Part shown: positions 573 to 64,000 of the stretch, piece by piece | How the letters are laid out: every line of letters begins with the position of its first letter | How positions within the stretch are numbered: position 1 is the first letter of the stretch | Assembly (NCBI GenBank): GCA_008632985.1 | Contig: QPGO01000072.1 | Coordinates: forward strand, 124,001-188,000 | Direction: 5' to 3' | DNA from: Psammoneis japonica | Lineage: Eukaryota | DNA length: 64,000 nucleotides | The notes under the pieces: model-generated | Database searches by the model: none | What the model saw: only the letters and a program-made list of their open reading frames with translations | What the model was told of the DNA's origin: nothing | Made by a program: the position numbers and the translations under genes

Positions 573-3500
573 CTACCTTCTTGACTGCTGTCTCTTTGGG
601 CAATCCTTAGAATGCGCTGGTCGACCTCTTGGTCGGCACCCCGTCACGCTGTAGCTTTGCTGCAGCTTGTATTGTAGGAAAGCAGGACAACAGTACGGAT
701 CAATGTCTCGCTTCCTTTGATCTCGTATTGGATCATTAAGAGTTGAAAGAGCCGGTTGCACTTGATATGGAACAGATGGGAGGGCTGCACTCATGCTCGA
801 TGCAAAAGCAAGCTGTTGCGAGAGGGTGCTTCTCATGGCTTGCAACATGTTGAACTGCTCCTCGACTTGAACGTGAGCTGCATTAAGCAATGGAGTGGCA
901 TCCATGCACATAGGTTCAACCGTCACCTCGGGAGCCATCGCAATTTCGGCAATGCCGCTTGTAGGTTCAACGGTTGGCGCCGCTGCAGTTTCCCCATCGT
1001 CACGGTTTCCAACTTCTGATCTTGTTGTTCGCTTGTATGGATTTTGCACCGGTTTCGTCCCACAGAGATTGCACATGCATCGATCTGTCTCGGGGTGTGG
1101 AGCAATCGTTTCATTTCTTGCATTCTGCTCCAGCAGGTACTGGGACAAGAAACGCTCGCCGGTGTCCTCCTCGAGTTCCCTTACATTCGGATATGGCGCT
1201 TTCTTCCCCTTTTTTATTGCAAGGTTATTGATTTCAATTAGATCAAGTACATTCCGATGAGTAACCACGCCCCGAAAGTCGTATGGAATCTTGGCTCGCG
1301 CCGTTGCATCCATTTTCTCGATTCGCTCCTTCTCTTCGATTGTTTCATTGTACAAAACTAATCCTTCCAACGTAAGCAAGTCCATCAATGAATGTCTCAT
1401 TCCGCAATTTCCATAATGTGCCAGTGAATCGTGTGCCTTCTCCAATTTGGATTCTGGTCCTAGCAGCGTTCGCCACTTTACTAGTTTTGCTTTCGACCGC
1501 AGGGACGGCGCTACTGGCCAGTACTGCTCCGACTTCGGCACTGGAGTGTCTAATCCCTTAGAGGTTTCTTTCGCATTCAAAATTGCATCCTTTGTGTCGG
1601 TTGTAAACAGTGTTAGTCCACTGTCTGGATCTAGCCGTCCTCCGGCAGCGGGGGCTCCGTCGGAGGCAGTGCACTTGTATCGAGCAAACCAATCCTCAAG
1701 CAAAGTGAGCCTTTTCTCCAGCGGGTGCCTCCAGAGACGAATGTATTCCTGGTAGTGCTTCCACCTTGAAGAGTGGATGATATCTTGTATCTCCTCGTCA
1801 GAATGCTTTTTGTTGTTTAGAGTGCCATCCTTCAGGGCTTGTATCACAGCTTGGCGGTCGGACCACTCGGCATACGATACGGTCGCCTTAAGATCACTTA
1901 CAGCTTGCCAATAATCAGCATGCTCTTTTCGGAGCGTTCTTACAATTCGATGCATCCAATGAAAGAGCCCGAGCAGACAGATTAGGTTCATTCCGAAAAT
2001 TGTCTTCCATAGCTGCGACTTATGCGGCCAGGTGTCGCTGTAGTGGATTTTCGGTCGTACGTTTTTTCGCCTGGCAAACTGTTCTGCCGCGTGAGCAAAA
2101 TCTTTTGCTTCCAATGTTGGGGTTAGGCAAGCGGTTCCTACCTGCCCCTTTTCATTGCACATGGTGAACAGGCCAGCTGCTCCACCTGCTTTCTTTGAGT
2201 AGTTTTTGAGAATCTGAAAAGTGTGATCGGATGCGACACTCACGGCGGCTCCAACCATCTGTATTAATCTCGTGCACCTGTCATACGAGGACGTGGCCAG
2301 AGCTGTCAATTTTGATTTGCCGCTTTCGTCATAAAGATCGAGAAGTGCAGAGCCTGATGGACTGTACCCGCCCATCCAATCCTCAAAAGACACCCAGTCT
2401 TCGGTTTTGTCTATGGCTCGGTCATAGTATTCTTTCTGGAGGTCCTTGAAATAGTCGGCTCGCATTTGGTGCAGCATGTGCGAGAACTTATCCCCGCCTG
2501 CGTACGTGACAACAATGGACTCAAGGAGTCTTGTAGTTTCCTTGGTAAGATGCCACTTGTTGGTTGCACTAGCATACTTAGGCAACGTTGGATATGCTGA
2601 CTGTAGGCTTTTTGGCAGCTTGTGCAGTAGTCGACCGTCGTTGCCCTTGCATCGAATTTTGCATTGATTGCATTCGTACCACATTGACACCGCCATGTGC
2701 GTCTTCCCGCTGATGCAATATATTGGTGTCGCCCCACCGTATCGAGTAAAGTCCATACGGTCATGAATCATTTCACCGTCGCACTCTCCGTCAATGCAGG
2801 GGATGTAGATGTTAGGATAATTCAGCTCCCAACAAACAATGTGTATTATCATACCTTGCAGCTGATGGTAGTAATAATCAGGTGGCAATGTGCAGTCATC
2901 CTTGGGAACTTCAAATGATATTGTACCAGGAGGAAAAGTTTCATCCTTAAGCTCCAGCATCTCGTTGAGCTTAATACTTTTTGCTGTAGCCACAGGATAC
3001 TTGTTGCTGCCTTGCTCGAATCTGGGCTTGATAGAGTCCAACAGATAGCTGATGAGAGCACTTACTGCAGCCGGGCACTTCGTCCTCTCCTCGGAGTTCT
3101 CGTATTTTTTTACTCTTGCTCGAATCTCTTGTTTCAAAGTCTCAACCGAAAATTTTGTAATAGCGGCCGCCTTGCAAGTATTATCCGTGTACTCCACGGG
3201 GCCTGCAGCACCAGCCACCCCCGAATTCACCGGCTTGCAAACATTGGAAACACCTGGAGGAGGCAATATGATGCAAGCTTCAGGTCTCTGTGTTCCAAAA
3301 TGGTCTCGTATGGTCGAAACTCCCTCAACTGGGGCAGCCGGAATCGTGTTGTTCGTTTCGTGCAGCTCTTTATCGCGTCGCTCTGCATCCATGGTAGCTT
3401 TGGTGACGTTCACTTGCGAGTACCTTTTTGAAAATTTACATGTGGGATCATGGCCATGATGATATGTAGGACCTCTCTCACATCTCTTGCATTTCTTCGT

Positions 3501-3770
3501 TCCGTCGTCTACTCTTGCTACCTTACGCCCACTAAAATCGCTCTGATGCGTCCGCTTCTGGCGTGTGTGCGCTTGGCTTTTGCTCGTTTTGATGGAGCCT
3601 TTGCGTTTCTGGGATTGAATGCCCATGTTTCTAAAGAAAGGATGCAGCTGCCGCTCTTCGGCCTCTTTTGTTGGAGCAGATTCTTCCGTTACGTCCGTCA
3701 TCATCGAAGCACCAGTAGAGATTGTACTTTTCTCTCTCGTGGGTTTTTTTTGTGAGAGAATTTTTCTCAT
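573..3770 (-). mobile_element. Intact Mutator-like (MULE) DDE transposase ORF, ~1065 aa
   Basis: Intronless ORF from first ATG at 3770. Motifs VASDHTF (D1), CNEKGQV, YSDTW (D2), LGLFHWMHR (C/DxxH-like), SKLEKAH (E), plus Cys/His clusters at both ends. Termini not identified. Confidence 0.6.
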
Positions 3771-4389
3771 CGCGTGAGAAGTCTGTGTTGTTGTGATTTT
3801 CCGTGGCGCGAAAGGAAGATGACAGTCGGTCTCCGCATCATTCTGATTCTTGTGTCTGCTTTTGGAGAGTTGTCTCAACCTCCTCGTCCCTAAGTGATTG
3901 CGTCAGATTTTCCAAAAAAGTGTTAATTAATTAGTCGGAAAGTCCTCGACTTTCCGAGGGTCTCCCCTAAGTAGAAATCCCAAATGCTGAATTCTGATTG
4001 GCTCTCGTAGCGCCATTCCTAATCCTCCCTCGGGACCGAAAACCCCGTCTCAAATCTGAAATCTGAATCGTGCCACCGGAAAAATCAAAGACCGACATCA
4101 TGACGTTTTCTTGCTAAATAGCTCGAAATCTACTTAATCTTTTTCTCCTTACCTGAAAGCTACTTATTTGTAAGAAAACGAGCTCCCAGTGCAAGAAAAT
4201 CATGGTGGTCATGCGCGCTGTCGCGCGAGTAAGACCCCATGCAGAACAGGTTGTTCGTGCTTTTCTGCATTCTTCGGAGCGACGTGCAGACTATACTGAG
4301 ATTACCCGTAGAAAGCCAGTAGAAACAAGTAAAAAATCTACTTCATTTTTCTCGTAAAAGGGCCAAAATTTACTTTACTTACCCGACAT

Positions 4390-5690
4390 GATGTCAGTTT
4401 TTGAGTTTTTCGGTGGCACTTGTCCAAACATCCAATCTGCAACGTCATCGTCTCGATGTGTCACGGATGCGTCCCTCCGAGAGATTGGCCCAACACCTCA
4501 TCCCCAACAAATTGTCCATGGCCCACGAATGACTGAAAGATCTGACAACACTGTTGTCCAAAACAAGAGCACATTTTTTGGAAAACATGGCGGGAAAGCA
4601 TTGTGAGAAAATTTGAATGGAAAGAATCACAGACAGCACTCAGAAAAGCATGAGAACATTGGAGCTTGTCATTTGGGCTCGCGTGTGGCAGAATGCAGTG
4701 CATGCTCATGCAACGGCTTCATAAAACACGGCAAATGCCAGGACGTCCTCCTTCTTTTTCCCCTCTAAACTCATCACAAATCGCAAAAAGTCCTCGCCCT
4801 CCTCCTGGCTTTTGCCTGTGCTGAGACAGACAAAGTTTGCCGTCTCGTGAGCAATTTGTCATGATGTGGGGCTCCAGAGATCAGAGATGCTCTTGTGTTT
4901 TGTGCAGAGGTGTGACAGTGGCAGGTTTGCCTTTTTGCTGATTGCCAGGTTCTTTGTCTGCTGATTTGCAGTTGGTCTTTCTCTGGCTGGCAATCGACTC
5001 GCATTTGTGCTGGTGCTTGCGCGCCAAATGTCTTCTTAGTTTCCACGCCCGCTTTGCTGATGATTCTGGCGCTGTGCCACAATTTTCTGTTTTGGCTGCT
5101 GCTTGGAAACTGCCCAATCCCAGTCCAGCAAATCCAGGCCCAGCCGATCCAAGTCTGGTGGCGGTGGCCGCAGCACGGCTGTCAGGTCACAGTCAAAATC
5201 CGGTGGCGGCGGCGGAGGAGGAAGCAAGAGCAAATCCGGTGGTGTTGGAGGAGGAGGCAGCAAGAGCAAATCCGGAGGCAGCGGCAGAGGAGGAGGAAGC
5301 AAGAGCAAATCCGGAGGTGGCGGAGGAGGAGGAGGAAGCAAGAGCAAGTCCGGAGGCTGTCACCTTGAGCGACAGCTGGGTTTCCTTTGCTGTGGCGGGC
5401 CTTGTTTCAGCACAAATTGTTGTTTTGTTTTCACTGACATTGTTGCTTTGGTCTGTTTCTTTTTTGCAGGAAGAGTGAGCCACACTTGTGTGGCAGCCAG
5501 GCTTTGGTCAAGTGTTGCAACAAGAAGGGCGGTGGTTGGAGCAGCACCTCAGTTGGTGCACTGGACACACAGGGGTTGCAAATGCATGTGGAAATGGCAG
5601 CTTTTAGATGTTTGGGTGTCATTGTTTTCTTTCTTGACCACAGCTAGGTCATCGCATGGGCACTGATGACAGGAAGCAAGGAGGGCGGGA
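4390..5690. other. TpA-depleted island 1 (hypermutated repeat relic)
   Basis: About 5 TA dinucleotides in ~1.3 kb by eye; TG/CA-rich; ORFs here lack Tyr. Confidence 0.8.
5150..5357 (+). repeat. Minisatellite of 36-39 bp units (GGAGGAAGCAAGAGCAAATCCGG...) reading G-rich SKSKS repeats
   Basis: Four to five visible copies of agcaagagcaaatccgg followed by (ggn)n. Confidence 0.85.
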
Positions 5691-5977: not shown

Positions 5978-7315
5978 ATGCTAAGTAGATTGGTTTCTTT
6001 GCCGCTTCGATTCTTACTCGTCCCCTCAAGCACAGAACCGATCTTTTCTGTGGCGCTCCATCAACAACAGGCGAGCAGCATGTCAACCGCGGCCGCCACA
6101 GCTTACCCTTGGGGCTGTACAGCCTTGGTTGATCCTGATTCGCATGAGGTTCAGATTGAACGACTAGTGGGTTACAAAGACACTGACGCAGACGCTGTTC
6201 GAAGGCTAGATGGCCTGACGAAGCTCCTCGACATGACAAAGAGTCCAGACTGGATGGAGTACATTGAAGTGGCGGAAGATCGAATCAACGATGAGGGTGG
6301 AGCGGGCGCTTACGACACAATGCGTTGTGACATGCTTGTTAATCCAGACCAGAAAGGTTCTAGATGGAACATTTGGGGAGAAGAGTTTCATTTGAATCGA
6401 CTGAGGAACTCGTTTCGATACCTGCTCCATGAGAATGATCCAGAATCGCACGGAACTGTTTCGGAAAGTGCCATTGGGATGGCCATGGAAGACTCCCATA
6501 AGATGCTCAAGCATTTACTTGGCGAGGCAGAAAAGGCAGACATATTTAAAGAAACCCAAGCGGAAGCTTCTAATCAGCAGTTGGAGGACGTTCTCGTCCA
6601 ACCAGTTCGTCTATCCTTGCTGTGGTCCCTTCCCAAGACGTTGAAAGGCCGGGTGGTCGTACGGGGCCATGCTTGCAGCACCACAAAGCCAGTTTTCATC
6701 CATCGACCATCCAAGCCGATTACTGTGACAATTGCTGCCGTTGGTCACAACACAACAACCATGGAGGTTGATGAATCCATGCCAACAAGGCTCCGTGACC
6801 CCCAACACAAGGTTGCTTCGTGGACACGCCTCCGACAGAAAATGGAGAACCCTGAAACGTACATGCCAGAGGGCGTATCCGAAGTACTCATGGTGCGACA
6901 ACGCAAACAAGATGGTGCGTTGGAAGTGCTAGAGGGCCTTACGAGCAACTTTTTTGTCATTTACAAGGACGGAACCATTCGTACTGCGGAGGAAGGAGTG
7001 CTGCATGGATATGCAAGGCACCTTGTTCTTGAATGTGCAGAATTTTGTGGCCTAGTCGTGGATAAGGATAGGCCTATTCTCATGAAAGACTGCACAGATG
7101 GCCTTTGGGAGGAAGCCTTCATTACTTCCTCGTCTCGACTGATCTTTCCAATATCGAAGATTCTCGTTCACACGGACGACAAGACGGACTTTACAGAGTT
7201 TTGGTGCGATCCGGTCCTGACAGAGGCATCCCAAAACCCTGTCAGGAAAGAAAAACAAAAGTGGAGGCAACTGTTGGACGAAATACTGAATCGAGCAGGA
7301 TACCCGGTCTTGTAA
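5978..7315 (+). CDS. PLP-dependent aminotransferase class IV family protein (BCAT/ADC-lyase-like)
   Basis: 445-aa ORF with EGLTSNFF, GVLHGYAR and EAFITSSSR fold-type IV motifs. Confidence 0.85.
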   Translation: MLSRLVSLPLRFLLVPSSTEPIFSVALHQQQASSMSTAAATAYPWGCTALVDPDSHEVQIERLVGYKDTDADAVRRLDGLTKLLDMTKSPDWMEYIEVAEDRINDEGGAGAYDTMRCDMLVNPDQKGSRWNIWGEEFHLNRLRNSFRYLLHENDPESHGTVSESAIGMAMEDSHKMLKHLLGEAEKADIFKETQAEASNQQLEDVLVQPVRLSLLWSLPKTLKGRVVVRGHACSTTKPVFIHRPSKPITVTIAAVGHNTTTMEVDESMPTRLRDPQHKVASWTRLRQKMENPETYMPEGVSEVLMVRQRKQDGALEVLEGLTSNFFVIYKDGTIRTAEEGVLHGYARHLVLECAEFCGLVVDKDRPILMKDCTDGLWEEAFITSSSRLIFPISKILVHTDDKTDFTEFWCDPVLTEASQNPVRKEKQKWRQLLDEILNRAGYPVL

Positions 7316-7580
7316 CAATCTGTCGGCAGAGGCGTGGAAATTAATGTAAACATCTAAAATCTATGTGAATCTACTTCTTATCTACAATAGACAAATGCCT
7401 CCCAGCTCAGCTGTGGATTCGTAAGGCCAATTCGACGTCGCAGCTTTCATTTTTTTTTATGGAATTGAATAACTGGTTTTCCATAAAAATGATGGTCACC
7501 ACGAATAGATCCGCGGCTACCGGTAAATGAAAAGATGGGCCGAGCGGGACAGGAATCGGGACATTGATGCCAACCTGACC
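7205..7580 (+). repeat. Left copy of ~380-bp direct duplication (live aminotransferase 3' end plus dead copy of MMSDH 3' end)
   Basis: Aligns with 9741-10124 from tgcgat(c/t)cggtcctgaca to gacattgat(g/a)ccaacctgacc; MMSDH-derived part has indels. Confidence 0.92.
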
Positions 7581-7589
7581 GAGACCAGA

Positions 7590-8850
7590 AGATGGAACAT
7601 TGAGGAGAAGGTGCAGATGTGGTAAAAGGCACTCTCGGTCTGGGTGTCATGCAGGTGTGTGGGCAGGCAGTTGAGGTTGGTGCGGAACAAAGAGAAGCCT
7701 TTTGCATGAGGCAGGTGTCGGTGAAAGCCAATGCTGCCAACAGGCTGACCACGGAAGCGGAGGCCAGTTGTGATTTCTGGCCCAAGCAGAGAGTTGGCAG
7801 CAGGGCTGAAAAAGGCAAAAGCTTGACACAAGGCATCTGCAGGGGAAATTCTTGGGAGTGGGAGCTGGAGCTGATGAGACACTGGGGAGGCAAGGATGCA
7901 CATCTTTTGGTGGCTGAGTTTTGTGCCATGCTGTGCTGGACTGGCAAATCTGGGTGAGCCACTCAAGAAACCACAGCAGCTCAGCATGTGGCAACCAGTT
8001 GTCAGTGTTGTCCAGCAGGGAAGTTGCAGAAGTTGCATTGGATGGATGAAGACAGGAGTGTGCAGCTCGGCATTGAGAGTGGCTTTTGAGGAGACAACAC
8101 TGAAAAGGCCAGAGCATTGGAGAACGGCGGGCCAAGTGGACAATCTTGGGTGCAAAGCCTTCCAGCAGCAAAAAGGAGTGCCATCTGCTGGAAGCATTGC
8201 AATGCCAGCAGATGTTGGAAGAAGCACAGCAGAGATTGATGAGTGGGAGGGTGGGGCATGGCAAAAAGCTGGGCCAGCATCAGGGAGAGTGCTTCCGGGC
8301 ATGCAAGGTGCTGGGGGAGCACTGTTTGCCAAAAAATGTGGTGGCTGAGGTTGATGGCAAGAAGAGATGGGTTGGGGTGTCTGCACCCTGATGGTGCTCA
8401 ATGTTGGTGTGAGTGGCATGGATGAGGCAGTTGAGGCCTCCTTTGGCCCCTGCCCCGAGTTGCGCCAAGGAACGGCAGACATGCCAGCTGTCTTGGCAAG
8501 GGAGCCCGCCCGCAACACACACCAGACAGTGGCGCCACAGCTGATGGGGTGCAGTTTGTTGGTGTGCAGCTTGTCAAGGTTTGTTTGGTTCTCATGCAAG
8601 GCAATGAAGCAACAGGCTGGTGGGAGTGGGCAGCAGATCTCATTGAAAGCCAAGCTGGCTTGGACGAGGAGGAGTTGTCGAGACGAGAGTTGCGAGGCTG
8701 GGCCTTGTTTGGGTTTTGAGGGATGCAGAGACTTTGAAGAGGGTGCAGGCCTTGAGCTGGTCAGTGGAGTCAGCAAAGGGGGCGTTGGCGGTGCCTGGTT
8801 TGCATTTGCTGAGAGCCGGCAGGAATTGTTCACATCTCTGGAGGGGATTT
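7590..8850 (-). mobile_element. TpA-depleted island 2: probable degenerate non-LTR (CRE/Ambal-like) reverse transcriptase relic
   Basis: Essentially no TA. Minus frame reads CFIALHENQTNLDKLH..LHPISCG..W and AVLLP..GIA, resembling the recalled RT motif YFIALHKD...KLRPIGIG..WRR with Y->C and R->H. Confidence 0.5.
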
Positions 8851-8991
8851 CAAAAGCGAGAGTCCATGCGCGTCTTGCGCGCGACGAGTGAAGGACGGCG
8901 CGCCGAAATTTTTCAACCACAAAAGAAACAACAATTCGGTGCGCTCACACTTTTCACGACGCCAATTCTTGTTTGCTCCATCCACATCATC

Positions 8992-9636
8992 ATGTCGCAC
9001 CGCCGTCAATTCGAGACCGAAACGGACCCGTTCCAGTTTGACAGAAACACTGTCAAGGGTTTCATCATTGCGTCGGATCCTTCTTCACCGGCGTGCGTGT
9101 CTCAATTCAATCGCCCACGCGCTGCTCTGGACATTGAGCAAATTGAGGGCGCCGCGGCACGCAGGATTGCAGATATCACGCGAGCCATGCTCCACAATGT
9201 CTGCGGAAAGGCACTTGTTGTAATGGAGCATAGCAAGCGCGTGACATTGACACCACGCGCTCTGACGTTTGCTCTGAGAGTTTTCGCCGTCGAAGAAAGC
9301 CGCGTGCTTCCCGCGGCCTTGAATCTTCCGCCCCAGGACGAAGCAGCCCAAGATGGAGATGAGGACGAACAGTGGCAGAAGGTGGCAGATGATCTTCAGG
9401 ACTATGACGCCAATGAAGATGTTGTGGGTGAAACCATGCACGAAGAAGACGATCCAGAGGAGGAGGCGTTCTCAGGCAAAAAACACGGCATTTCGCCCAA
9501 GAAAGCCGAGAAATTGTGGATCTGGACGATGATCAAGGAGTACCGCGTCGACTTTTCTGTTCGTAAAAAGAAAGAATTTTACTCTATCTTGGCGAATGCC
9601 ATGAACGGTTACATTCGCATGAAGTTCCTCCGTTGA
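8992..9636 (+). CDS. Divergent histone-fold protein (H4-like domain, acidic linker, possible truncated H3-like domain)
   Basis: MLHNVCGKALVVMEHSKRVTLTPRALTFAL aligns with H4 [30 protein letters not shown]; ATG at 8992, 214 aa. Confidence 0.6.
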   Translation: MSHRRQFETETDPFQFDRNTVKGFIIASDPSSPACVSQFNRPRAALDIEQIEGAAARRIADITRAMLHNVCGKALVVMEHSKRVTLTPRALTFALRVFAVEESRVLPAALNLPPQDEAAQDGDEDEQWQKVADDLQDYDANEDVVGETMHEEDDPEEEAFSGKKHGISPKKAEKLWIWTMIKEYRVDFSVRKKKEFYSILANAMNGYIRMKFLR

Positions 9637-9740
9637 GCCAACTCATGAAGCAGTTTCCGGTGGCATTTAGTTCATACATAACAATGCTATAGTTCCTTTT
9701 TCCAATGTCACTAGGATTTATATGTGTCAAAGAGTTGTAG

Positions 9741-10124
9741 TGCGATTCGGTCCTGACAAACGCATCCCAAAACCCAGCCAGGAAAGAAAAACAAAAGTGG
9801 AGGCAACCGTTGGACGAAATACTGAATCGAACAGGATACCCGGTCGTGTAACGATGTGTCGGCAGAAATACGCGAGCAAATAATAATGTACACATCATAT
9901 ATAATCTATGTGATCTACTTCTTACCTACAATAGGCATGGTAACGCCTCCCAGCTCAGCCGTGGATTCGTATGGCCAATTCGACGTCACAGTTTTCATTT
10001 GTGTATAGAATTGAACACCTTGTTTTCCATAAAAATGAACGTCACCACGAATGGATCCGCGGCTACCGGTAAATGAAAACATGGGAAGCGGGACAGGAAT
10101 CGGGACATTGATACCAACCTGACC
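9741..10124 (+). repeat. Right copy of ~380-bp direct duplication (dead aminotransferase 3' fragment plus live MMSDH 3' end)
   Basis: Direct alignment with 7205-7580. Confidence 0.92.
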
Positions 10125-14868: not shown

Positions 14869-15627
14869 AGTCTTGAAGAACACAAGACCGTCAGAACGAC
14901 ACTATTTCATTTGGCGTTTTATTTTTCTGATGGGGGTAGAACAATGCACTCTGTTGTACGGATCAGTCAAGGGTTCAATAATTCTGAATTCCAAACGTGA
15001 TCAAATGAGCAACGGCAGTGTTATGCTTTCATGCATGGGATATGGTAGTCGCAAGGGGGTCATCACGGTGGGGCAAGTGCCGAAATACACTGTACATGTC
15101 TTATAGAAACTTTTGTTTAAAACGATTGGACTACTCACAAACGCAACCGTAGACTACAGCAGTGCCATGCAGATATCCCAGAGTTTTAGCATCCCACCTC
15201 ATCAAGAGGGAGAGAAAGGACCAAATCGTGCTACGATTCACCGAACCCTTCTGACAATTCATCAACAAAATCAACAAAACTCACAACATTGCTTGACAAA
15301 CACACAACGTCTGCATTCTCTCTCGTGAGCAACTTTGAAGATGCATCTCTTCATGTGGACAACCCACGTGGTGCATGTCTGTTGCTTGGATGGGCAAGAG
15401 GTGAATGGGTTCCATCATCAGGACTCTGGATCACATGCCAGAGCCTTTCACTGTGAGACAACTGCACTGCCATTTCAGAAGCAGCATGGGTGGCTCCACG
15501 AGTGAAGAAAATTGAAGCCCCAAAGACTGATGCTGGAGAGACTGGCCAACAAGCTGTCAAGCATGAAGCACCACAATGTGATTGCAGCCATGGGTGTGGG
15601 AGCCTTGGCGAGTGCTGGGATCCCCAA

Positions 15628-15830
15628 NNNNNNNNNNNNNNNNNNNNNNNNNNNNNNNNNNNNNNNNNNNNNNNNNNNNNNNNNNNNNNNNNNNNNNNNN
15701 NNNNNNNNNNNNNNNNNNNNNNNNNNNNNNNNNNNNNNNNNNNNNNNNNNNNNNNNNNNNNNNNNNNNNNNNNNNNNNNNNNNNNNNNNNNNNNNNNNNN
15801 NNNNNNNNNNNNNNNNNNNNNNNNNNNNNN
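15628..15830. other. Assembly gap (N run)
   Basis: Run of N bases. Confidence 1.
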
Positions 15831-18120
15831 GGGGGGCAAATGACAAGGATGTTTTTGTGTGTGGTTTGCTGGTCTTTGTCATTGTGACAAGTTTTCTCAA
15901 ACTGCCTGTCTTGTCAGAGATTGCTGCTCAGCCAAGAGAGTTGGCTGGTGTGCAGCATCTAGCCTCACAGCTGCTGACATGCAACATTTTGAAACAAGGC
16001 AGCTGTGATGGTGGTCCACCAAAGTTCTGTGGGTTGTGGCCAGGTGAGAGAAAAATTTGTTGTCTCTGCACAACAAAGTCTCTTCACAAAACTTCTCAGC
16101 AGATTCAAGATGAAAGGGCTTTTGAAGAAGCTGCAAAGTCTTGCATTTTTGCTCACTTGATTTGATGGACAACTTCGTGAAATTCCAAGCCACGGCAGTG
16201 GTTTCCCAACCACACCACTTGTTTCCATGACAAAGTGGTTGGATGGAAAGCATTTTGTCAGTGGTGGCACCTCCCATCACACCACTGTCAACATCCTCCA
16301 GTCTCTGGAACTTTGTCTGTGTGTGCCACCTCCTCACTGGCACAAGAACTTGACATGAGCAAGTCATGTGTGCAAAAACACCATTGCACTTTGGGGCCCT
16401 TCACTCTCCACTCTGACTGCCATTGCCACTCAAAAGCTCTGGCTGCTCCGTGGCCCCATCAGGTGCTTTTGTGATGAGCTCCCAGCTGGAGAATGGTGGG
16501 TTCTGCAAGTTGCATCGGCCAGATGATGAATTGTTTGAACCATCTGCACCTGCAAAAAGCAACTTGAGCAACCAGCCAAAGCAAGCGCCGTTGTGCCAGA
16601 TCTGGCACACATGTGAACAACCTGCAGAGAGTGGCACACTCCACATTGTGGATGCTGCTGGCAGCTCCCTCAACCAAGAGAGGGCAGCCCACTCATGTCC
16701 CTGTGATCAGTTCACAGAAGATGATGAATGGAGACTCAAATTGAGGCTCAGATCATGACCTCTTCTTGGGGGAGATGAGGAGGTGCAGTGCAAAGCCCTG
16801 TGGGCCCCATGTGTTGCCATTGGCAAAAGTCCTGAGAGCTTGAAAACAAATGAAAAATCCTGCATTGCAGGAGCAAAATGTGGCACTCACAACGTTCAAA
16901 AATGAGACACACAGAGAGTCAAAGTGGGCTGCATCTCACCAGCTTCATGTGGCTCCCATTGTGCAGCACAGCACACACACAGCAGTCATGACCCATCCCA
17001 TGGATTTTTCATCTCCTGAGAAAGCAGTGCCAGCAGCCTGCTCCAGCTCTGGGTGGAATGATTTTGGATGTTCTTGCACTCCTGACAAAAAAAATCTTTC
17101 TCAAACACTCACCTCCTCCACAATGTGAGTTTTCAAAAGAAAGGCATGCAGTCACATGGAACAACACAACACTTTGCATGTGACAAAAAGTCTTGCTTTG
17201 TTTGAAAATGTCAAAGTCAAAGCAAAGAGCAGATTGACAAGATGTGATTTTGCCAAGTGTCCCAAACTGCATGGTTTTGGACCACCACACCTGGAGTCAG
17301 AGCAGGCCCAGCACCTGCTTCAGCAACAGCGCTGCTGGAGCAATCCAACGGCAGCTGCAAAAATCCTCCAGTTGCTCAGCCAGCAGTCATCATGCCATGC
17401 TGCTGCCAGCATGGTGGTGAGGAAGGTCAAAGCTGACAAAGTGTGGGCATGGTGGCACAAGAGGGGCAAGCAGCAGCAGCATCTTTCTCAAGGAGCTGGG
17501 TGAGCAGAAATGGCTGGAGTGCTGGTGGTTTGAAAAAACAGAAGGGAAGCTTCCAGCTCAGTGCTTGATGCAGCTGACAAGGTGGCAGATGCACCAACTG
17601 CAGAGAATGCCAAGGAGCTTCTTCACATGCTTTTTGCAGAGGCCTGCTTGGGTGTTTGTTGTTGACTTGGGGTTGCATCAGCCTTCGTGCGCCTCCTTTG
17701 CAGAACTGTGTCTCAGTGCAAACCATCAGATGATGGAGGAACCCCAATGCATCTGGGCTCCGGAGCTTGTGTTTGTTGTTTGCACATCCAAGTGTGCAAA
17801 GGGCTGATCAAGAAAACACACAATGGCCAAAGTTTGCAGCAAATTGAAAGCACACACACTGCTTTTTCCAAACAAAATTGGAGTGGGGGACACACACACA
17901 TCTGATGATGAAAATGTTTGTTTGATGGTGTGATGCCACCCAGTCTGCTTTCAGGTGACATCTTTGATGGCTGGAGTTGGTTGGAGCAGCAGGGGCTGCA
18001 AATGTGGAGTTTACATTTGCTCAATTGTGGCTGTTGCCTCTGGTTGTCAAAGCTGTCTTTGACATCTGCCTTGTCACTGACAACAAACAAGTTGACAAGA
18101 CACAACTGAAGCCTTGGCTT

Positions 18121-18420
18121 TTCTCATCAGGAGAGAGAATTCTTCCCCCATCTCTGATGTGCCAGAGGGGCACATTGCTTGTGGGAGCTTCTGTGCTCAT
18201 GGGATGAGGATCTTGGAACTTTCTTTGTTTAAAAACAAAGGTGCAAAGTGCAAACTTCATTGGAAAAGACAGCTCAAACAGGGCTGCTCTCTCTGATGTT
18301 CAGTTGGACAGCTGCTGGGGGCTCTGGCTCAGCATGTGGCATTGTTGATTGCCACGGGGTTGGTGTGGGTGTCAATGTCATGCATCAGCAGCTTGCAATG
18401 TGCAGCACATGATGCAAGAG
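18121..18420 (+). repeat. ~300-bp dispersed repeat, copy 1 (copy 2 at 20613-20938)
   Basis: Shared blocks cttgtgggagcttctg, gatcttggaac, aacaaaggtgcaaagtgcaaactt, gcaatgtgcagca..tgatgcaagag. Confidence 0.85.
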
Positions 18421-19839
18421 TGTGCGATCCATTCAACAGCAACACTTTGCAATGTTTTTGTGTTCCTTGCAGCAAATGAAGTGAGCACAGCAACAGATGC
18501 TTTTGATGAGGAAATGAGAATGCTTGCACCAACATGTTTGCAAGTGACTTGCAACCTTGACACTCAAACTTTTGGCTTGTGCTCTGAGCTTCTGCCAGAG
18601 TGCAACATCTGGCTTTGCTCAGGCCACATTGCTGGACAGATCCCACACACTCCACTGCTGCTGCTGCTGCTGCCACAGCAGCAGCTGACAGATCAGGAGC
18701 GCACTGTTGGACAGATGTTTCAGACCTGCAAATGGATGTGCTGTGGAATGCATGCTGATGCAATGCATTCCCTGAGATGCAAAGAGAGAGTGCCACTCAT
18801 GGCAAGATCTTTGTCCAGGTGGTGTTCACATGTTGGCACAACGTTGCAGCCTTCTGAGACATTTGGTCCCATTGCCTGGCTTCCAATGATGGAGAAATTC
18901 CCTCAAGATGATTCAAGAAGCAAGAGTGCATGCAGAGCACCAGACCCTGTCAGAAACAGACAGCTCATGACATTGGCTGCTTCCTCATTGAAACATTGCA
19001 TCAAAATCAAAGTTGATGCCACAAAAAGACACACGCAGCACAGGGCCAATGCAACCATGCAATTCACGTCCTCAGGGGTCACTGCACCACAAACTGTGGG
19101 AATTGGGGACAACCACAATGGGGTGCACAACACCGCAAGCAACCATGTTGCATTGCCTGTCAGTGGGGAAAATTCATCAACAAATGAGTGCAAAATGAGG
19201 GTGTGAAGAACAGCCAAGATGCCATTTGTCACAACTGTGGCTTTGGCAGTGCACAGAGAATGACAAGCCTGCTGCTGAGAGTCCATCTCAAAGGGACTTT
19301 CCTGCACATCAAGCAACAATGCTGCAGCTGTCCTTGTGCACTTTCAGCGCTCTTCCATTGCTTTCCAGTGTGCTGCACTTTCAGCTGCACTCAGTCAAGG
19401 TCAGCTGCATTGTGCAAAATCTGGCCAGATTGCATTTCTGTGGATGGAGGGAAGTTGCTCAGGGGGTCATTGTGGCACAATCATTCACTTTGCATTAAAT
19501 GTGTGTTCCACCATGAGTGCAAAGATTGTCAAATTGTCATGACAGTCATTGTGGCTCACCATTTTAACAACTTGCATCATTGGGCGGGGCCAACATCACT
19601 CAAAACACCACCTCAAAGAGAAAACACAGAGAACTTCTTCTCCTCACAATCTCAATTTGGTCGCTGCAACACTGGCACCCGGAATTGCCCCAACCCCCTT
19701 TGTTCATCATCACACTTTGTCTCTTGACTGCACTCTGGAGGACATTGTGACACGCTTCCTCTCTGCGCTGAAGAGAAAAGACATGTTGGATGCCTCAAGC
19801 ATGTCATTGTCCTTGTCCTTGTCATCCTCATTGCATGAA

Positions 19840-20590
19840 GAGGACATTCTGTTTGCTCCAACTCCAGCTCTGGCAATTGTGGGAGTGGTTGACTTTTGCA
19901 AGAGCACTGAACAAAAGCTCTTCCAAACTGGTTTGGAAGAGCTGAGTGGAGAGATGTTCAACTGCACTCCAGGCAAACTCTTTCAGTTCCTCAAGAATGT
20001 CAACAACAGGGCCAGCTTGCTTGGATGGAATGACCTGGTCATGGGAATTTTCACAACACCCCCAAGGACCCTGATGACCCCAATGCAGTGCACTCAAACC
20101 TGATCACCAGTTGTGGTGAGATCAGCTTGGAGCACATCAAGAAACACCAGGAGCTGCACATGAGGATGAACCCTTGTTGTGCAGCCCAAAACACCACCAT
20201 GTTTGGACACTGTCTCATTGGTTTGATCTCCAAGAGTGGAAAGGAAAAGATGCACATCCATGACAAGTCCTGAAAGGCTGGAGACAAGATTTCTGGCTGT
20301 CTGCTTCTTGAGGTCAACACTCAAGAGTCATGCCTTGATGCAAACATGACCATGAGCATGATCTGTGTGAAACTTGTGGAGTTCTTTTGTCGACACTTGC
20401 CCACAATTGGTTCACAACATTGCAAAGTTCAATCAGCATGGCTCTCCTCCCCTCATGGCATTGAGGTCTCATGGCAAAACCATGATGGAAGACCTCCTGA
20501 CAAATCTGTTTGGAGGGCACTTGGCTGCTTCTGACAAGAGCTTTGTCAAGTGCACTGGAAACAAGCAAGAGGAACAAGTTGACAAGATTG
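19840..20590 (+). mobile_element. Diatom Copia (CoDi-like) gag relic, frameshifted
   Basis: FAPTPALAIVGVVDF..KLF..FNCTPGKLFQFLK..RA..GW, NLITSCGEISLE, EDLLTNLFGGHLAASDKSFVKC resemble recalled CoDi gag segments. Confidence 0.7.
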
Positions 20591-20612
20591 TGCAAGTGTC
20601 AAGCCCCAGCTC

Positions 20613-20938
20613 TTCTCACCCGGAGAGAGTGGCACTCTCCCCCGTGGCTCTGATGTGCTGTGCTGAAAGGGGCACATCACTTGTGGGAGCTTCTGCACTC
20701 ACAGGATGAAGATCTTGGAACATGTTTTTGCCCAAGCAACAAAGGTGCAAAGTGCAAACTTTGTCAGGAAAAACAGCTCAATCAGGGTCAGTCTTTCTGA
20801 TGTTCAGTCAGCCAGCTGCCTGCTGGGAGCTCTGGCTCACATGGTGTTGTTGTTTGCCATGGGGTTGATGCTGGTGTCGATGACATGTTTGTCAAAGCAT
20901 CTGCTGCAGCTGGCAATGTGCAGCATGTGATGCAAGAG
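20613..20938 (+). repeat. ~300-bp dispersed repeat, copy 2
   Basis: Aligns with 18121-18420; begins where the gag relic ends. Confidence 0.85.
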
Positions 20939-21477
20939 CTCGCAACACTTGTGCTTGGGCTCAACAAAGATGGAACATGCCAACATGTCCCACCAAATTC
21001 CAAGGCTTTGGCCTCTCTCTCTCCTGGTTGAGTGTTTGGTTTGAAGTGCAAAAACCGCAGCTCCTGCCCTGTTGCCTGTTGAGAACAACATTGCCTTGAG
21101 AGGCAGACAAGCTCTTGACATGTCATGTTGGGCCATTTTGAGTCACAGACTTGGGGTGTCAGTGGCCCACTCTCCTTGTGGTTGGACATGCCAGCTGCTT
21201 TGCTGTTTTGCACACGCAAAAAGCACGTGTCTCTGCAGCGTGGATGTTTCGCCATGTGGCATCATTTTTGACAGTGCCCAGCTCACCCCAGCTGACAGTT
21301 TGCACATGCAAAAGTTCACAAGGAGGCCTGCACACAGCCCTGGAAGAAGCCCCTGCAACCAAGCATGGCGCGTTGATGCTGTGCCCTTGTTTTTCGCTGT
21401 GTGCTGCCCACACTCATTGACAGGATTTAAACAAGATTGACCAACTCGATTAAATCCGACCCATCAACCTGAAAAAT

Positions 21478-21541
21478 TGCGATACCCAGGAATCGAACCT
21501 AGGTCCTCTTATAACCGGTTACCGACTAAACCATTTACCGC
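21478..21541 (-). ncRNA. tRNA-like Pol III unit in the 3' LTR (anticodon arm reduced)
   Basis: GCGGTA/TATCGC acceptor stem, A box TGGTTTAGTCGG, T arm CTAGG-TTCGATT-CCTGG, then a TTTTT run. Confidence 0.75.
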
Positions 21542-21978
21542 TTTCTTCAAACTGACAGGCTTTTTGTACATAGTCACACATGTTTCAGCCAGAGAGTGAC
21601 ATACACCTTTAATTCTTCTTAGAATTCTGTCACTCCCCATATGTCACGAAGCTGTCTGACGTCACGAAGCTGTCTGACGTTCCTTTCTTTGGACAATGAT
21701 ACTTCTCACAGCTCCCCTTCTACCTGGGCCACATTTTTCTGCACATGTCATGACCTCCCCGGCGAACTGATAATTGGGCGGCCATTCCGGCCTCGGCATC
21801 CCTAATAAGAGCACTATGTGCATCGTCGGTCTGTCTCACCGCAGCCTCTCCTCAGTTTTAGAGTCATCTTGAAGGAGCACACACACCTAGGTTCAAATCA
21901 TCAACGGTCCTCGCACCATGACAGGATTTAAACAAGATTGACCAACTCGATTAAATCCGACCCATCAACCTGAAAAAT

Positions 21979-22043
21979 TGCGATACCCAGGAATCGAACC
22001 TAGGTCCTCTTATAACCGGTTTACCGACTAAACCATTTGCCGC
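21979..22043 (-). ncRNA. tRNA-like Pol III unit in the 5' LTR
   Basis: Same as the other LTR, with a perfect D stem GTTT/AAAC. Confidence 0.75.
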
Positions 22044-22134
22044 TTTCTTCAAACTGACAGGCTTTTTGTACATAGTCACACATGTTTCAGCCAGAGAGTG
22101 ACACACACCTTTAATTCTTCTTAGAATTCTGTCA

Positions 22135-22490
22135 CTCATCCTCTCATCCAGCACTGCCACAACCCCCAAGTTTGCTTTGAAGAAACTTGGAAAAGGAGAC
22201 AAGGCTTTCCATTGCTGCTGAGAGAAGCCATCATTGAACAGCTCTTGGAGCCACGCAAAGAGCCCAAAGACAGTGGGGGGGGGGGGGGGCGGGAGTTTGA
22301 CGAACCTTGGCCTTGGCGTGGGTGCTTTGAGGACACTTCTTGCCACTTCTTGGCTCTGAGGATTGCCAAGCCTGCTGTTACAGTGCACCAGCAGCACACA
22401 AACCTCATGCTCCTGCCTGCAGACTCCACCAAACTTGCCTCACAACCACCTGCCTCTGTTGGGGCGGCTTGGCCCTCATGCATGCTCTGC
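22135..22490. other. Continuation of TpA-depleted island 3 beyond the TRIM
   Basis: About 1 TA in ~350 bp, then an abrupt return to TA-rich sequence. Confidence 0.8.
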
Positions 22491-23219
22491 CTAGACTACC
22501 TGCCGCAGGTGGAGCTTCTATGTACCGGTGCCGGCATCTCCGTGTCTGTTTCGTAATCTCTTGGCATCAATTATCATATATTCCGCTCTGAGGATGAACA
22601 TCTAAAAAGTTTCGTTGAGCGTTAGCAAAGTACTGTACTAAAGTATCGGTACATTATTATCGGAATCATCGTTTTATAAACCTATGACTATGTAGGTACT
22701 AAATACGATTTTGAAATCTTATTTAAAAATATTCATGCACTAAGAAGGCGAGATTTATTTGCCGTTCATGATTACCTTCATTATATAATAAATGTTAATA
22801 TATGCGGATGATTATATTTTTTTGCCGCAACGCACATAGGAAAACTCCAAAACAGAAGCGTGGCGATTGACGATGTTGTGGCTAATTTCTAATGCGCTGT
22901 CAATACTGTATAATTGCATTAACTTTGACTTCATTGTGTGGGCGAGCTGCAGATCACTCGATGGTGTCTAGTTGTGACAGTCGCTGTAAAAAAAGATCTT
23001 TCGGCTGCCGTCTTTGATGCGCCGCATCTCGATTCTATCATTTTTGCATCATGTGCGTCACATACATCATTGTCTAACGGAACGAAGGCCGCCTTGTTTT
23101 TTGAATTCAGATTTTGGTGCATTTCACCGTTTGAATCGATAGCTTTTTTCGTTGTTTCGCCGTTTACTCCTGAACTGTGCCGCACACAATTTTTGCAAAG
23201 TTCGTACCGTTTCGCAATC

Positions 23220-47749: not shown

Positions 47750-48045
47750 CTTGATAGATATACTTTACGCGCTCTTGTGTCTCAAACAATGCAAGAGGGT
47801 GTATAGCGAGAGGGAGAAGTTACAGTTTGTGGCAACAGGTTGCGCCGCTTCTCCTCTCGTGGGGTGTTGTCTGTGTTGTTCTTGGAGAAGGCTTTGGAAA
47901 AACAGCATGCACGACAAACACGCGCGTTCGTGCGTGGATGACGGACAGAGGCGAGGCTAGAGGGGATGAGAAATCCCCGCCCTCTAGCCCCCCCCCCTGG
48001 TCTGCCTGCTCCCTCTTCCCCCATTTTAACTGAGGCACACCATAC

Positions 48046-49470
48046 GAGCGCGAGACTGAAGTTCCTTGGCCCTTCCACTTCCTCTGCTGATGGATCCCTT
48101 GTTGTTGCTTTGCTCAACAATGATGGCATCTTCCTTCTTCCTTTTGCTGTTGATGGCCTTGGTGTGGTCTCGGATTCTTTGCTGACCACCTTCTCTTCAG
48201 CTCTGCATTGTTCTCCATCCGATCTCAACCCAAGCCTCCCTGGTCCTCTCCTTCTGACCTTTGGTGCTCTGATGCTTCCCATTCTGCCTTTCTCTGTGCC
48301 TTTTCCTCTCCGTCTGCCCTTCTCCCTTTGGCTGATTTCACGCGGTGTCGCCTGTCCTCTCTGACCACTTTGGCAGCACTTGTCGCACTGCCCCCCCCTC
48401 CTGGTGGGCCCTTCAAGCTCTCAGCTGCAATGTGGCTCTTCATCCATCCATGCACACCCTCCAATTTACTTCCTCTCTTCCTGCTCCTTCATCTCCTCCC
48501 ATGCCATTGACCAAATGCCCTTGTCCCTGCATCTGGCGAGCTGCCTTCGTGCCTCCCTCAGCTGTTCCCTTCCATTCCATGTGAGCTCTTCATGACTCTG
48601 CACTTTAAAAAAGTCAGCCGAATGACTGTCTTTTGCCCTTTTGGAACAGCGTGCTTTGCCGCCATGACGGCAAAAATCCCGCTGCAGATCAATGACGAAA
48701 CCACTCTTTCAGACAAGGGGCAGCAAGGAAGAAGGTTTGCAGTGGCACACAGCACCTTTTTCCATTCTGCCAATGCTGCTGCACAACAACTGGCAGAGAG
48801 AAAGAAGAAGGAGGGGGGGGGGGGCGTGAGTGAGAGACAACCACGCTGTGCCGCGCAGGCCATTTCCGCTGCTCTTGCTCACCTGCTGGCAACAACAAAT
48901 TTGATGACAGTCACAGAAAAGCACCATTGCATGTGACATTTGGAAAGTCTGTCAGAACATTGGGGTGAAAGGTGGTTTGTTTCACAGCAGCAGCACACAA
49001 AGACAGACAAAAGAGTGCTGCAGCAAGTGGCTTGCTGACAACCATTGATCATGTGGCAAACTCTGTTTGCACAACTCATGATGGGTTGCAGGTCTTGTGC
49101 TCACTTTTTAGCTTCTACAAAAAGCACACAAAATGCAAACAGCAGCACAGCCAGCAGAGCCAAAGTCAAACAGAGGGTCGAGTGGGGGCTGAGGAAAGCA
49201 AGGGCTGAGGGTTGGCCAGAAGGACACTGCCCAACAGACAAAGCTTTCAGACATTCTGTGCATTGGCACTAAACAGGAATGAGAACACGTGTCAAAGCTG
49301 TGTGCTTTGCTGTGCTTTGTTTGCTGCGCACCTGTGTTTGTTCTTCTTTCCTCTTGTGGCGCCAGGGGGTGTGAGCTGGGCACAAACTTTTGCACAGCTC
49401 AGTTGTTCCCTCTGGGGGTGCAAACTTTTCCACTGGCTCAAATGTCAAACAGGCAGTGGCATCACTGTTT
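48046..49470. other. TpA-depleted island 4 (unidentified degenerate repeat)
   Basis: About 5 TA in ~1.4 kb by eye; TG/CA-rich; G and C runs. Confidence 0.85.
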
Positions 49471-49927
49471 GGTAAGTGTAGATGTTGGGCATGTTGAACA
49501 GTGTGAGCAGCTCAACATAGAGCAAGTGCGTGCATGATCATGCGATGCATCAAAGTTCCGCGGCAGAGTTTTTTTCGAAAAGTGAGCGGCGGTCGTGCGT
49601 GCAGGCTTCTTTGCGGTCACAATAGATTTTAAATTTCTGAAGTTATCTATTTAAAATCGTTGATATAATAGATTTTCATATATTCTCCAAACCCGTAGCT
49701 CATCAAATGCTTATACATAAACCAAAAGGTTAGATAAATTAGTATGAATGTAAAAATTACCTATTGCCCCGACTCCAAAAAAATGCCGAACATGCCACAT
49801 CATCACGGCCAAAAAACACCAACAGTCACACACACGAACCATCTGTTCAATCGTTCATCTCGTTGCTATTGCACACTGTACCGTATCAATCTTACTTTGT
49901 AGCGACACGCCACCTCTTTAAAAAGCC

Positions 49928-62957: not shown

Positions 62958-63399
62958 TGCGCCTTCGCAAGTTAATCGTATGCAAAATATGAAAGAAGTA
63001 TTCTGCTTTCGCGCGGATATGAAGAGTTTTTGTGGCGGCGCTCGAAGAACGATAATTATTATGTCTTACTGAAAATTGTGCAATTAAGACATGATATTGA
63101 GACATTTTATACTTAAGGATAAATATGTTCCACGCCACATGAAGGATATCGTAACAATTAAGGGGGTCATCCCCGCGTTTGTCCAAAAATTTTTTACCGT
63201 GGCATTTGAATAAGGTTATTTAGACCTATTAGGGTCTATTTTTGAATACAAAAATTATTCTTTTTGTTCACACCCGAGCACCGCGATCGAAGCACGACGA
63301 TGACGACAATCGTCGACAGTTCTCAAAAACGTAGCTTGCAGTCTTCAAACTTTTCATGCACACAAGATCTTTGATGCACAAGGAACATAAAATAAATGA

Positions 63400-64000
63400 G
63401 AGTTTGAAGACGGACCACATCCGTCACAGACTTGTGGCTTGCTGTTTTCACCATGGTGAAGCGTGGTGAAATTCAGGAAAAATGATGCAAAAAATGAGCT
63501 GTTCGGCAGAATTCAAGCTAAAAAAGTGGCAACCGGCCACCCTTGAGACTCCTGATTGCCAGTGACTTCACCACTCAGAGTGCAGTGAGGGCACGCAATG
63601 CTTTGGGTGGTGGGCCACATCCTGCGCTCGGGGCCATCTTCGCTGTGCTGCGACAAAATGCTCATGACCCAAAACAGCTTTCTTTCTCTCACAGGGGAAT
63701 GAATCACAAAAAAATCACAAATGAAAGCTTTGGGACAAAAAATTGGCATCCCAGATTCCACTGGAATGTCTCTCCTGATTTTGGTGAAGAAGAAGCGGGG
63801 GGGGGGGCACAGTGACGCTCCCAGCTTTCAGGGGGCCCCCTCCTCACTGCAGCTCTGCTTGTGCAGCAGCGACCCTCTTTTTTGTGGCTGCTGCTGCACC
63901 TGGATGGCAGTGACTGCAACAAGATCTGTCTTGGAGTTGGCTGACAAAAAAAAGAAATCGTGAGCCAAGAAGAGCCCCAGGGAAAGCAGGCTTGCTTGCT
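63400..64000. other. TpA-depleted island 5 (runs off the window end)
   Basis: About 1 TA in 600 bp by eye; TG/CA-rich. Confidence 0.85.

Follow-up and report, generated by a model that had tools for sequence, protein, structure and literature searches.

Repeat-induced point mutation (RIP) of ascomycetes (RID or DIM-2) leaves dense, dinucleotide-specific transitions in which C:G is changed to T:A mostly at CpA, making TpA. Its trigger is duplication of DNA as such, and it depends on RID and takes place in the sexual cycle. The relation of diatom DNMT4 to RID is treated in parts of one paper (PMC9998398). TpA hypermutation of integrated viral DNA has been measured in mutation-accumulation lines of Bigelowiella natans, with a rate rise of about 1000-fold in living lines, and an ADAT2-type deaminase was proposed but not demonstrated in the parts of that preprint considered here (Mettrop et al., bioRxiv 10.64898/2026.01.13.699255). 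Our literature search, which covered mostly titles and abstracts and few subscription papers, found no description of TpA hypermutation in diatoms and returned one preprint, on this unrelated alga. Here we describe a process of the same kind in the diatom Psammoneis japonica, starting from a window of 64,000 nucleotides (contig QPGO01000072.1 of GCA_008632985.1, forward-strand positions 124,001 to 188,000) that holds a decayed gag gene of a Ty1/Copia retrotransposon within a block of DNA from which the dinucleotide TpA (TA) has been almost completely erased.

The block, delimited from TA positions and bins, extends from 15233 to 22490, is also CpG (CG)-depleted, contains a gap of N from 15628 to 15830 and is interrupted by a young, TA-rich insertion. 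Five TA occur among the 5981 read bases of 15234–21417, where 388 are expected, which is far past chance, and three of the five survivors lie within TTAA. In the 751 bases of 19840–20590 there is no TA against 51 expected from base content, and one CG against 42. The gene-rich background of the window has observed/expected (o/e) ratios of 0.59 for TA and 1.04 for CG, and host genes with normal TA lie on both sides of the block. Within it, a 5' long terminal repeat (LTR) relic (19515–19739, plus strand) matches by blastn both 225-bp LTRs of a sibling element, L011, at about 70% identity. The gag relic (19783–20576, plus strand) corresponds to the 5' ~60% of open reading frame 1 (ORF1), as judged from six-frame translation, 71% DNA identity to L011 and 120 homologs. 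It is broken by several indels, with frameshifts near 20066 and at 20411–20450 and a TGA at 20271, and is cut off at about 20576. A sequence-only reading of the window had recognized Copia gag from four peptides, all of which are found where it placed them on the plus strand: NLITSCGEISLE (20097) and RHLPTIGS (20391) share one frame and NLFGGHLAASD (20503) and FVKC (20542) another, the two being joined by frameshifts. That identification is upheld by ORF1 homology and, in siblings, by LTRs, target-site duplications (TSDs) and an RVT_2-containing pol downstream.

Searching its own genome with the relic gave nine other DNA matches at 72–81%, some of them in near-complete elements. L011 has a 441-aa ORF1 (gag) and a pol that matches gag_pre-integrs, SH3 and then RVT_2, and in an intact public relative used as outgroup (L103) this ORF1 precedes a pol of 1407 aa with YTDD. 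Pol, 3' LTR and TSD are all missing from the window copy, and its Copia layout is read from siblings and outgroup; a sister family (L052–L065) has LTR pairs and 5-bp TSDs. The nearest named match of the reverse transcriptase (RT) is a Fragilaria crotonensis protein (64%), diatom affinity is also indicated by an Atlas cluster that includes a single record from Bacillariophyta, and a Pfam search of relic frames and intact gag homologs returned no gag family. The stretch is thus, by its sequence relationships, a dead, truncated 5' fragment (LTR and gag) of a diatom-lineage Ty1/Copia element that is otherwise ordinary. It resembles the diatom Ty1/Copia elements (CoDi) in the parts of their description used here (PMC2806351) in TG..CA LTR ends, target duplications and, in siblings, an ORF1 followed by a pol of protease, integrase, RT and ribonuclease H; it differs in that the window copy is truncated and frameshifted, and its affinity is given at diatom level. 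In L011, a 332-aa TA-poor open frame without a Pfam match (L011:7556-8554) directly precedes the 5' LTR of the Copia element.

Every Tyr codon contains TA, so loss of TpA strips tyrosine from a protein. The observation that the relic contains no Tyr is correct, and Tyr is absent from all six frames of 19300–21300, but it only restates the absence of TA because neither strand has TA in any frame. The fate of conserved tyrosines is more informative, and was read by aligning 120 gag homologs and examining the codons of nine genomic copies in each column (L003 and L004 are non-independent). In fifteen gag columns, half or more of the 120 homologs have Tyr and none has Arg. Ten of these are covered by the window, where five are Cys or His and five are Phe or Gly; the latter are mostly common to siblings and are best read as family substitutions rather than hypermutation. 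Four of the five Cys/His codons stand in columns where no homolog has Arg: CAC (His, 20394–20396) in the LDxYxP column (106 Tyr, 12 Phe, 1 Cys), CAT (His, 20437–20439) in the FNxYV column (101 Tyr, 19 His), CAC (His, 20518–20520) in the FKGY column (118 Tyr, 2 His) and TGC (Cys, 20551–20553) in the FVxYI column (119 Tyr, 1 Cys), all on the plus strand. The fifth is the plus-strand TGT (Cys, 20112–20114) of the YGEI column, in which homologs have 69 Tyr, 49 His and 1 Cys and the copies including the window have 7 Cys, 1 His and 1 Tyr. Ancestral Tyr, which the sequence-only reading had given for four of these columns, is clean at FKGY and FVxY, whereas YGEI is weak taken alone, with His in 49 homologs, though one sibling retains TAT. 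The ten gag Tyr columns with variation between copies give 68 mapped cells, of which 62 hold Cys or His, 3 Tyr, 2 Ser and 1 Arg, and both Cys and His occur among copies at nine of the ten.

Cys and His are ambiguous by themselves because CpG decay of Arg CGY codons yields the same residues, and of the six conserved Arg of the relic one is kept, two are Cys and one is His. The two routes can be told apart only by the outgroup columns. The cleanest control for Tyr polarity is the RT of the near-intact sibling L011, in which CpG is still normal. Compared with 120 RT homologs, it keeps 6 of 18 conserved Tyr and has 9 Cys and 3 His in place of the others, including YTDD to CTDD, whereas conserved Phe (10/10), Gly (18/18), Asp (20/20) and Lys (12/12) are all kept, as are 10 of 13 Arg; conserved Ile has become Val, Met or Thr. 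The RT motif YVDD is CVDD or HVDD in 6 of 14 copies, and seven new stops were found across 13 copies, every one a CGA to TGA change. With homologs that are mostly Tyr rather than Cys or His at these columns, and a region that is indeed gag, the proposed protein-level polarity of Tyr to Cys or His is borne out.

The same polarity is seen directly in DNA of sister families. Seven TA-poor copies compared with the TA-rich L037 (94–96% identity; the copies are pooled and non-independent) keep 43 of 276 TA, with 137 changed to TG and 94 to CA. The same copies keep CG at 413 of 434 sites and CA at 543 of 550, and AA to AG and GA to GG changes number 0/482 and 0/527, respectively. Both strands are affected, with near-equal TG (638) and CA (539) outcomes on the sense strand. 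Twenty whole elements were fetched, giving 19 LTR pairs for comparison, and in seven of these one LTR lacks 11–17 TA while its partner lacks 0–1; because the loss is one-sided, the damage postdates insertion. In six elements (L053, L055, L056, L058, L059 and L062), TA changes at LTR ends occur in both LTRs, which indicates that lightly mutated parents still got copied. Where a site is changed in two unrelated insertions, the outcome is identical in 52–73% of cases, about as site preference gives; a pair of copies that share one target site and represent a single insertion agrees at 109/109. TA goes first and CpG later: hot tracts, defined on the same data, have lost 1177 of 1514 TA (~78%) and 92 of 1635 CpG (~6%), young copies combine few TA with normal CpG, and the relic keeps 1 of 53 CpG relative to L011.

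Sequence context modulates the change. Expressed as A-to-G and relative to a following A, the +1 base effect is 3.7 for C, 3.1 for T and 1.7 for G, with 5–95% bootstrap ranges of 3.1–4.6, 2.6–4.0 and 1.4–2.3, respectively. TTAA is among the most resistant 4-mers (0.63 kept), and the TTAA survivors of the window (3/5) are as predicted because the context fit ranks TAA worst. Runs of like strand are absent (616 like neighbours of 1174, against 605 ± 13 in permutations), which speaks against long patches of repair or an enzyme that moves processively along a single strand. Hot and cold tracts extend over kilobases: in L057, 107 of 128 TA are changed and then 3 of 159, and in L059, 171 of 213 and then 1 of 48. 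The cover of public run X2 on L057 stops near 3550 and 8050, close to the hot-tract ends of L059, L065 and L062, which may be a lead; the L057 boundary was tested with public contigs, where contigs of many copies overlap and missing cover carries no weight.

Some DNA is spared. The flank beside a heavily hit element has 72 of 72 TA identical in both copies, and the LTRs, which are the most highly repeated part, often escape damage. The four kinase-like copies in tandem (95–97% identity) keep 54–82 shared TA and have lost 4–13 per copy. DNMT-domain multicopy segments (L086–L088 and L092, on C301 and C297) are TA-erased, with o/e of 0.07–0.10, so that some multicopy non-LTR genes are affected in this genome too. 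Copy number alone is therefore probably not the trigger, because LTRs and the tandem kinase-like copies are spared and the DNMT-like segments erased, and targeting would involve a silenced-chromatin or RNA signal beyond DNA copy number. The kinase-like copies (L095–L097 and L099, on C12) form a tandem, mostly TA-retaining family of 837-aa ORFs, decayed relatives of which flank the gag relic of the window; the L095 ORF has a weak Pkinase match. Copies of the DNMT-domain segments differ by TG versus CA, and a TA-normal relative is present at L083.

A candidate RNA was observed in one sister element. In L057:3667-7907 (contig C21), the strand antisense to gag-pol has 13 stretches of 70–113 nt that are missing from contigs of run X2; in a TA-intact copy, 12 of the 13 are bounded by GT..AG, seven with GTAAGT, and none is skipped in run X1. 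GTAAGT occurs 11 times antisense and 0 times sense, where 1.2 are expected, and the longest frame of the spliced span is at most 127 codons. These joints suggest an element-encoded, multiply spliced, non-coding antisense RNA, the run itself being recorded just as 'DNA?'. All fall in the part of the element that loses TA most often, and TA is present in the donors themselves. TA is kept at 92 of 417 intron sites and 143 of 771 exon sites, with no clear difference and hence no sign of a mature spliced RNA as guide. The donor enrichment is absent at five outgroup loci and unreadable in TA-erased families, including that of the window relic; none of the runs listed for the window stretch is an RNA run, and a literature search for spliced antisense RNA of diatom LTR elements found nothing.

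These changes are very probably the work of a host process that acts on DNA after insertion and is specific to TpA. Such a process would act on chromosomal DNA and convert A:T to G:C almost solely at TpA, hitting individual sites on one strand or the other until little TpA is left, with slower CpG decay next. The A would be changed best in TAC and TAT and worst in TAA. Tyr TAY codons would become Cys TGY or His CAY according to the strand changed, and ATA, CTA, GTA and TTA codons together with TAs at codon junctions would give further missense changes; no stop could be created, so that inactivation would proceed by missense, including that of the tyrosine in the RT YxDD motif. For the chemistry we can offer a guess that falls a little short of even odds, namely adenine deamination to inosine by an enzyme of the TadA/ADAT fold. 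TAC resembles the tRNA site of TadA, which prefers UAC, a resemblance on which the paper checked gave no usable statement. The genome has an ADAT2-like protein (L077), presumably an ordinary tRNA enzyme. It has HAE, PCxxC and GCRN, where the B. natans preprint notes HxE, PCxxC and an Asn for its proposed deaminase.

Several points weigh against this interpretation. Deaminase searches of the genome returned an ordinary set (9 and 5 matches), with one TadA-like and one ADAT2-like protein and no expansion. TpA is palindromic, and A and T as the modified base are indistinguishable from sequence. The subfamily of the window has no TA-intact copy among 30 loci (the best TA o/e is 0.38), which is why DNA polarity was taken from sister families. 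L064 has mismatched target sites and the middle of L058 is of main-family type; the hot and cold tracts are in part recombination or assembly chimeras. A defensive role, which the process would seem to have, must also accommodate a sister family with TA-rich copies and identical LTRs, whose elements still spread.

Alternative explanations differ greatly in how well they account for these data. Modification of thymine instead of adenine, in which oxidation or another alteration of the T of RTA within silenced DNA would lead to mispairing with G or to repair to C, is unlikely, although the mirror reading of the context as T-to-C at GTA and ATA is identical to A-to-G at TAC and TAT. Repeats of dinoflagellates carry modified thymine. 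Searches for Tet_JBP and for MT-A70 found nothing in this genome, but nothing in any control genome either, and are uninformative. We give a similarly low chance to error-prone repair by Y-family polymerases around mismatches from methyl-C deamination in methylated repeats. CpG loss is indeed higher in hot (92/1635) than in cold (10/539) tracts, and the genome has five ordinary-looking Y-family loci and 27 DNMT-domain matches; yet errors of polymerase eta hit WA, AA as well as TA, whereas AA to AG changes number 0 of 482, strand runs are absent, and TA is lost ~14 times as often as CpG, whose loss is supposed to be the trigger.

Editing at the RNA level fares worse. ADAR-like editing of element RNA or cDNA in a UA context, fixed through retrotransposition, would draw on the UA preference of ADAR cited in the B. 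natans preprint (bioRxiv 10.64898/2026.01.13.699255) and on the TA changes that occur in both LTRs and hence passed through reverse transcription. LTR pairs that are damaged on one side only and retain their target duplications intact largely refute it, and it is very unlikely given the near-equal TG and CA counts on the sense strand and the kinase-like and DNMT-like non-LTR copies that are also affected. An artefact of sequencing or assembly at TpA sites that carry a modification has some chimeric copies in its favour, but is less probable still: two assembled copies of one insertion agree at every changed site, the signature recurs in unrelated public proteins, and 0.78 of 318 sampled 31-mers from 19400–22600 are present in a DNA-like public run, which may be the source sample itself and so counts against consensus-calling error only. 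Ordinary CpG decay or neutral ageing, with Cys and His derived from Arg codons, fits the near-total loss of CpG from the relic and the change of some of its conserved Arg to Cys or His, but is refuted by the complete lack of Arg in homologs at the gag Tyr columns and by young copies that are TA-poor with normal CpG.

The protein signature extends beyond this genome. Among 213 gag proteins read at ten Tyr columns, 175 have no Cys or His, 27 have one to three and 11, all of cluster P0098, have six to nine; in P0098, 15 columns vary among Tyr, Cys and His only, a pattern found at no column in seven other protein clusters. Of 120 RT homologs read at 18 Tyr, 103 are unchanged and 13 have one change, whereas P0338 has 15, P0262 12, P0246 7 and P0336 3, with Arg largely kept in the Tyr-erased public RT proteins. 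The best matches in this genome, among the matches listed, are 47–51% for P0098 and 59–63% for P0262 and P0338; because there is no close match, the P0098 cluster and three to four Tyr-erased RT proteins most likely come from other organisms. Six gag-related metagenome loci have normal TA (o/e 0.65–0.80). We suggest, at somewhat less than an even chance, that several diatom lineages carry a genome-defence enzyme steered to silenced, antisense-transcribed mobile DNA, which edits TpA (by deaminating A or modifying T) with a preference for TAC and TAT, stripping Tyr rather than making stops; such an enzyme would be a naturally occurring editor of A to G in DNA, either common to diatoms and Rhizaria or the product of convergence.

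The rest of the block and window contain further traces. TA-erased pieces of a kinase-like multicopy gene, which is not an LTR element, lie at 17387–18279 (plus strand; tblastn to the L095 ORF, 36–42%), and a second such piece follows right after the gag truncation at 20577–21394 (plus strand; tblastn 31–33%), with a 74% repeat shared with 18086–18420. The young insertion is a miniature LTR element at 21418–22134 (minus strand) that resembles terminal-repeat retrotransposons in miniature (TRIM), with ~215-bp LTRs at 21418–21632 and 21919–22134 and a CTCAT target duplication. It retains most TA, and its LTR differences (one TA/TG, one TA/CA and one indel) are the start of the TpA process. It has sites like a primer-binding site and a polypurine tract on the minus strand and is younger than the TA-free block around it. 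Together with near-identical LTR pairs elsewhere, the TRIM LTRs imply recent activity in this genome. Other TA-poor blocks of the window lie at 4381–5605, 7624–9174, 48044–49473 and 63300–64000, and 47980–48485 matches repeats beside L053 and L064. An aldehyde dehydrogenase gene has its 3' end duplicated in part (7195–7580 versus 9731–10124, 86% identical), the duplicate keeping 16 of 18 TA despite an adjoining TA-free block, and a 1109-aa open frame at 573–3902 (minus strand) has normal TA and no Pfam match.

If the process is as proposed, RIP and APOBEC would be joined by a third form of genome defence through mutation, from which a natural editor of adenine in DNA could be obtained. Its protein mark is portable: any protein collection can be searched for loss of Tyr to Cys or His alongside retained Arg, Phe and Gly. 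LTR-pair dating and transposable element annotation would be biased in such genomes because the damage is one-sided and frames stay open.

As in RIP, mobile DNA that has inserted carries dense transitions specific to a dinucleotide, with sharp borders, and genes are spared. Its direction is the opposite, A:T to G:C, and its spectrum is not the defining one of RIP, since CA sites are almost all kept and TA sites mostly lost; moreover, no stops are made, LTRs are often spared, tandem kinase-like copies keep most TA and there are no strand-coordinated runs. The likeness to B. natans, as described in the parts of the preprint considered (bioRxiv 10.64898/2026.01.13.699255), is closer: in both, changes are restricted to TpA to TpG or CpA, affect both strands of foreign or selfish DNA and spare host genes, and TpA-poor clusters are enriched for RT and transposase domains. 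The host here is a diatom, whereas those parts of the preprint make no mention of diatoms or stramenopiles, and the targets here are LTR elements and multicopy genes, those in B. natans being inserts of giant viruses and virophages. TA o/e reaches ~0.01 here against 0.45 there, with CpG loss following, and the extended context, tract structure and absence of strand runs described here have no such report in those parts of the preprint's main text. The process is therefore of the B. natans kind, and its occurrence in another supergroup, its action on retrotransposons and multicopy genes and its near-complete erasure of TpA set it apart as a variant.
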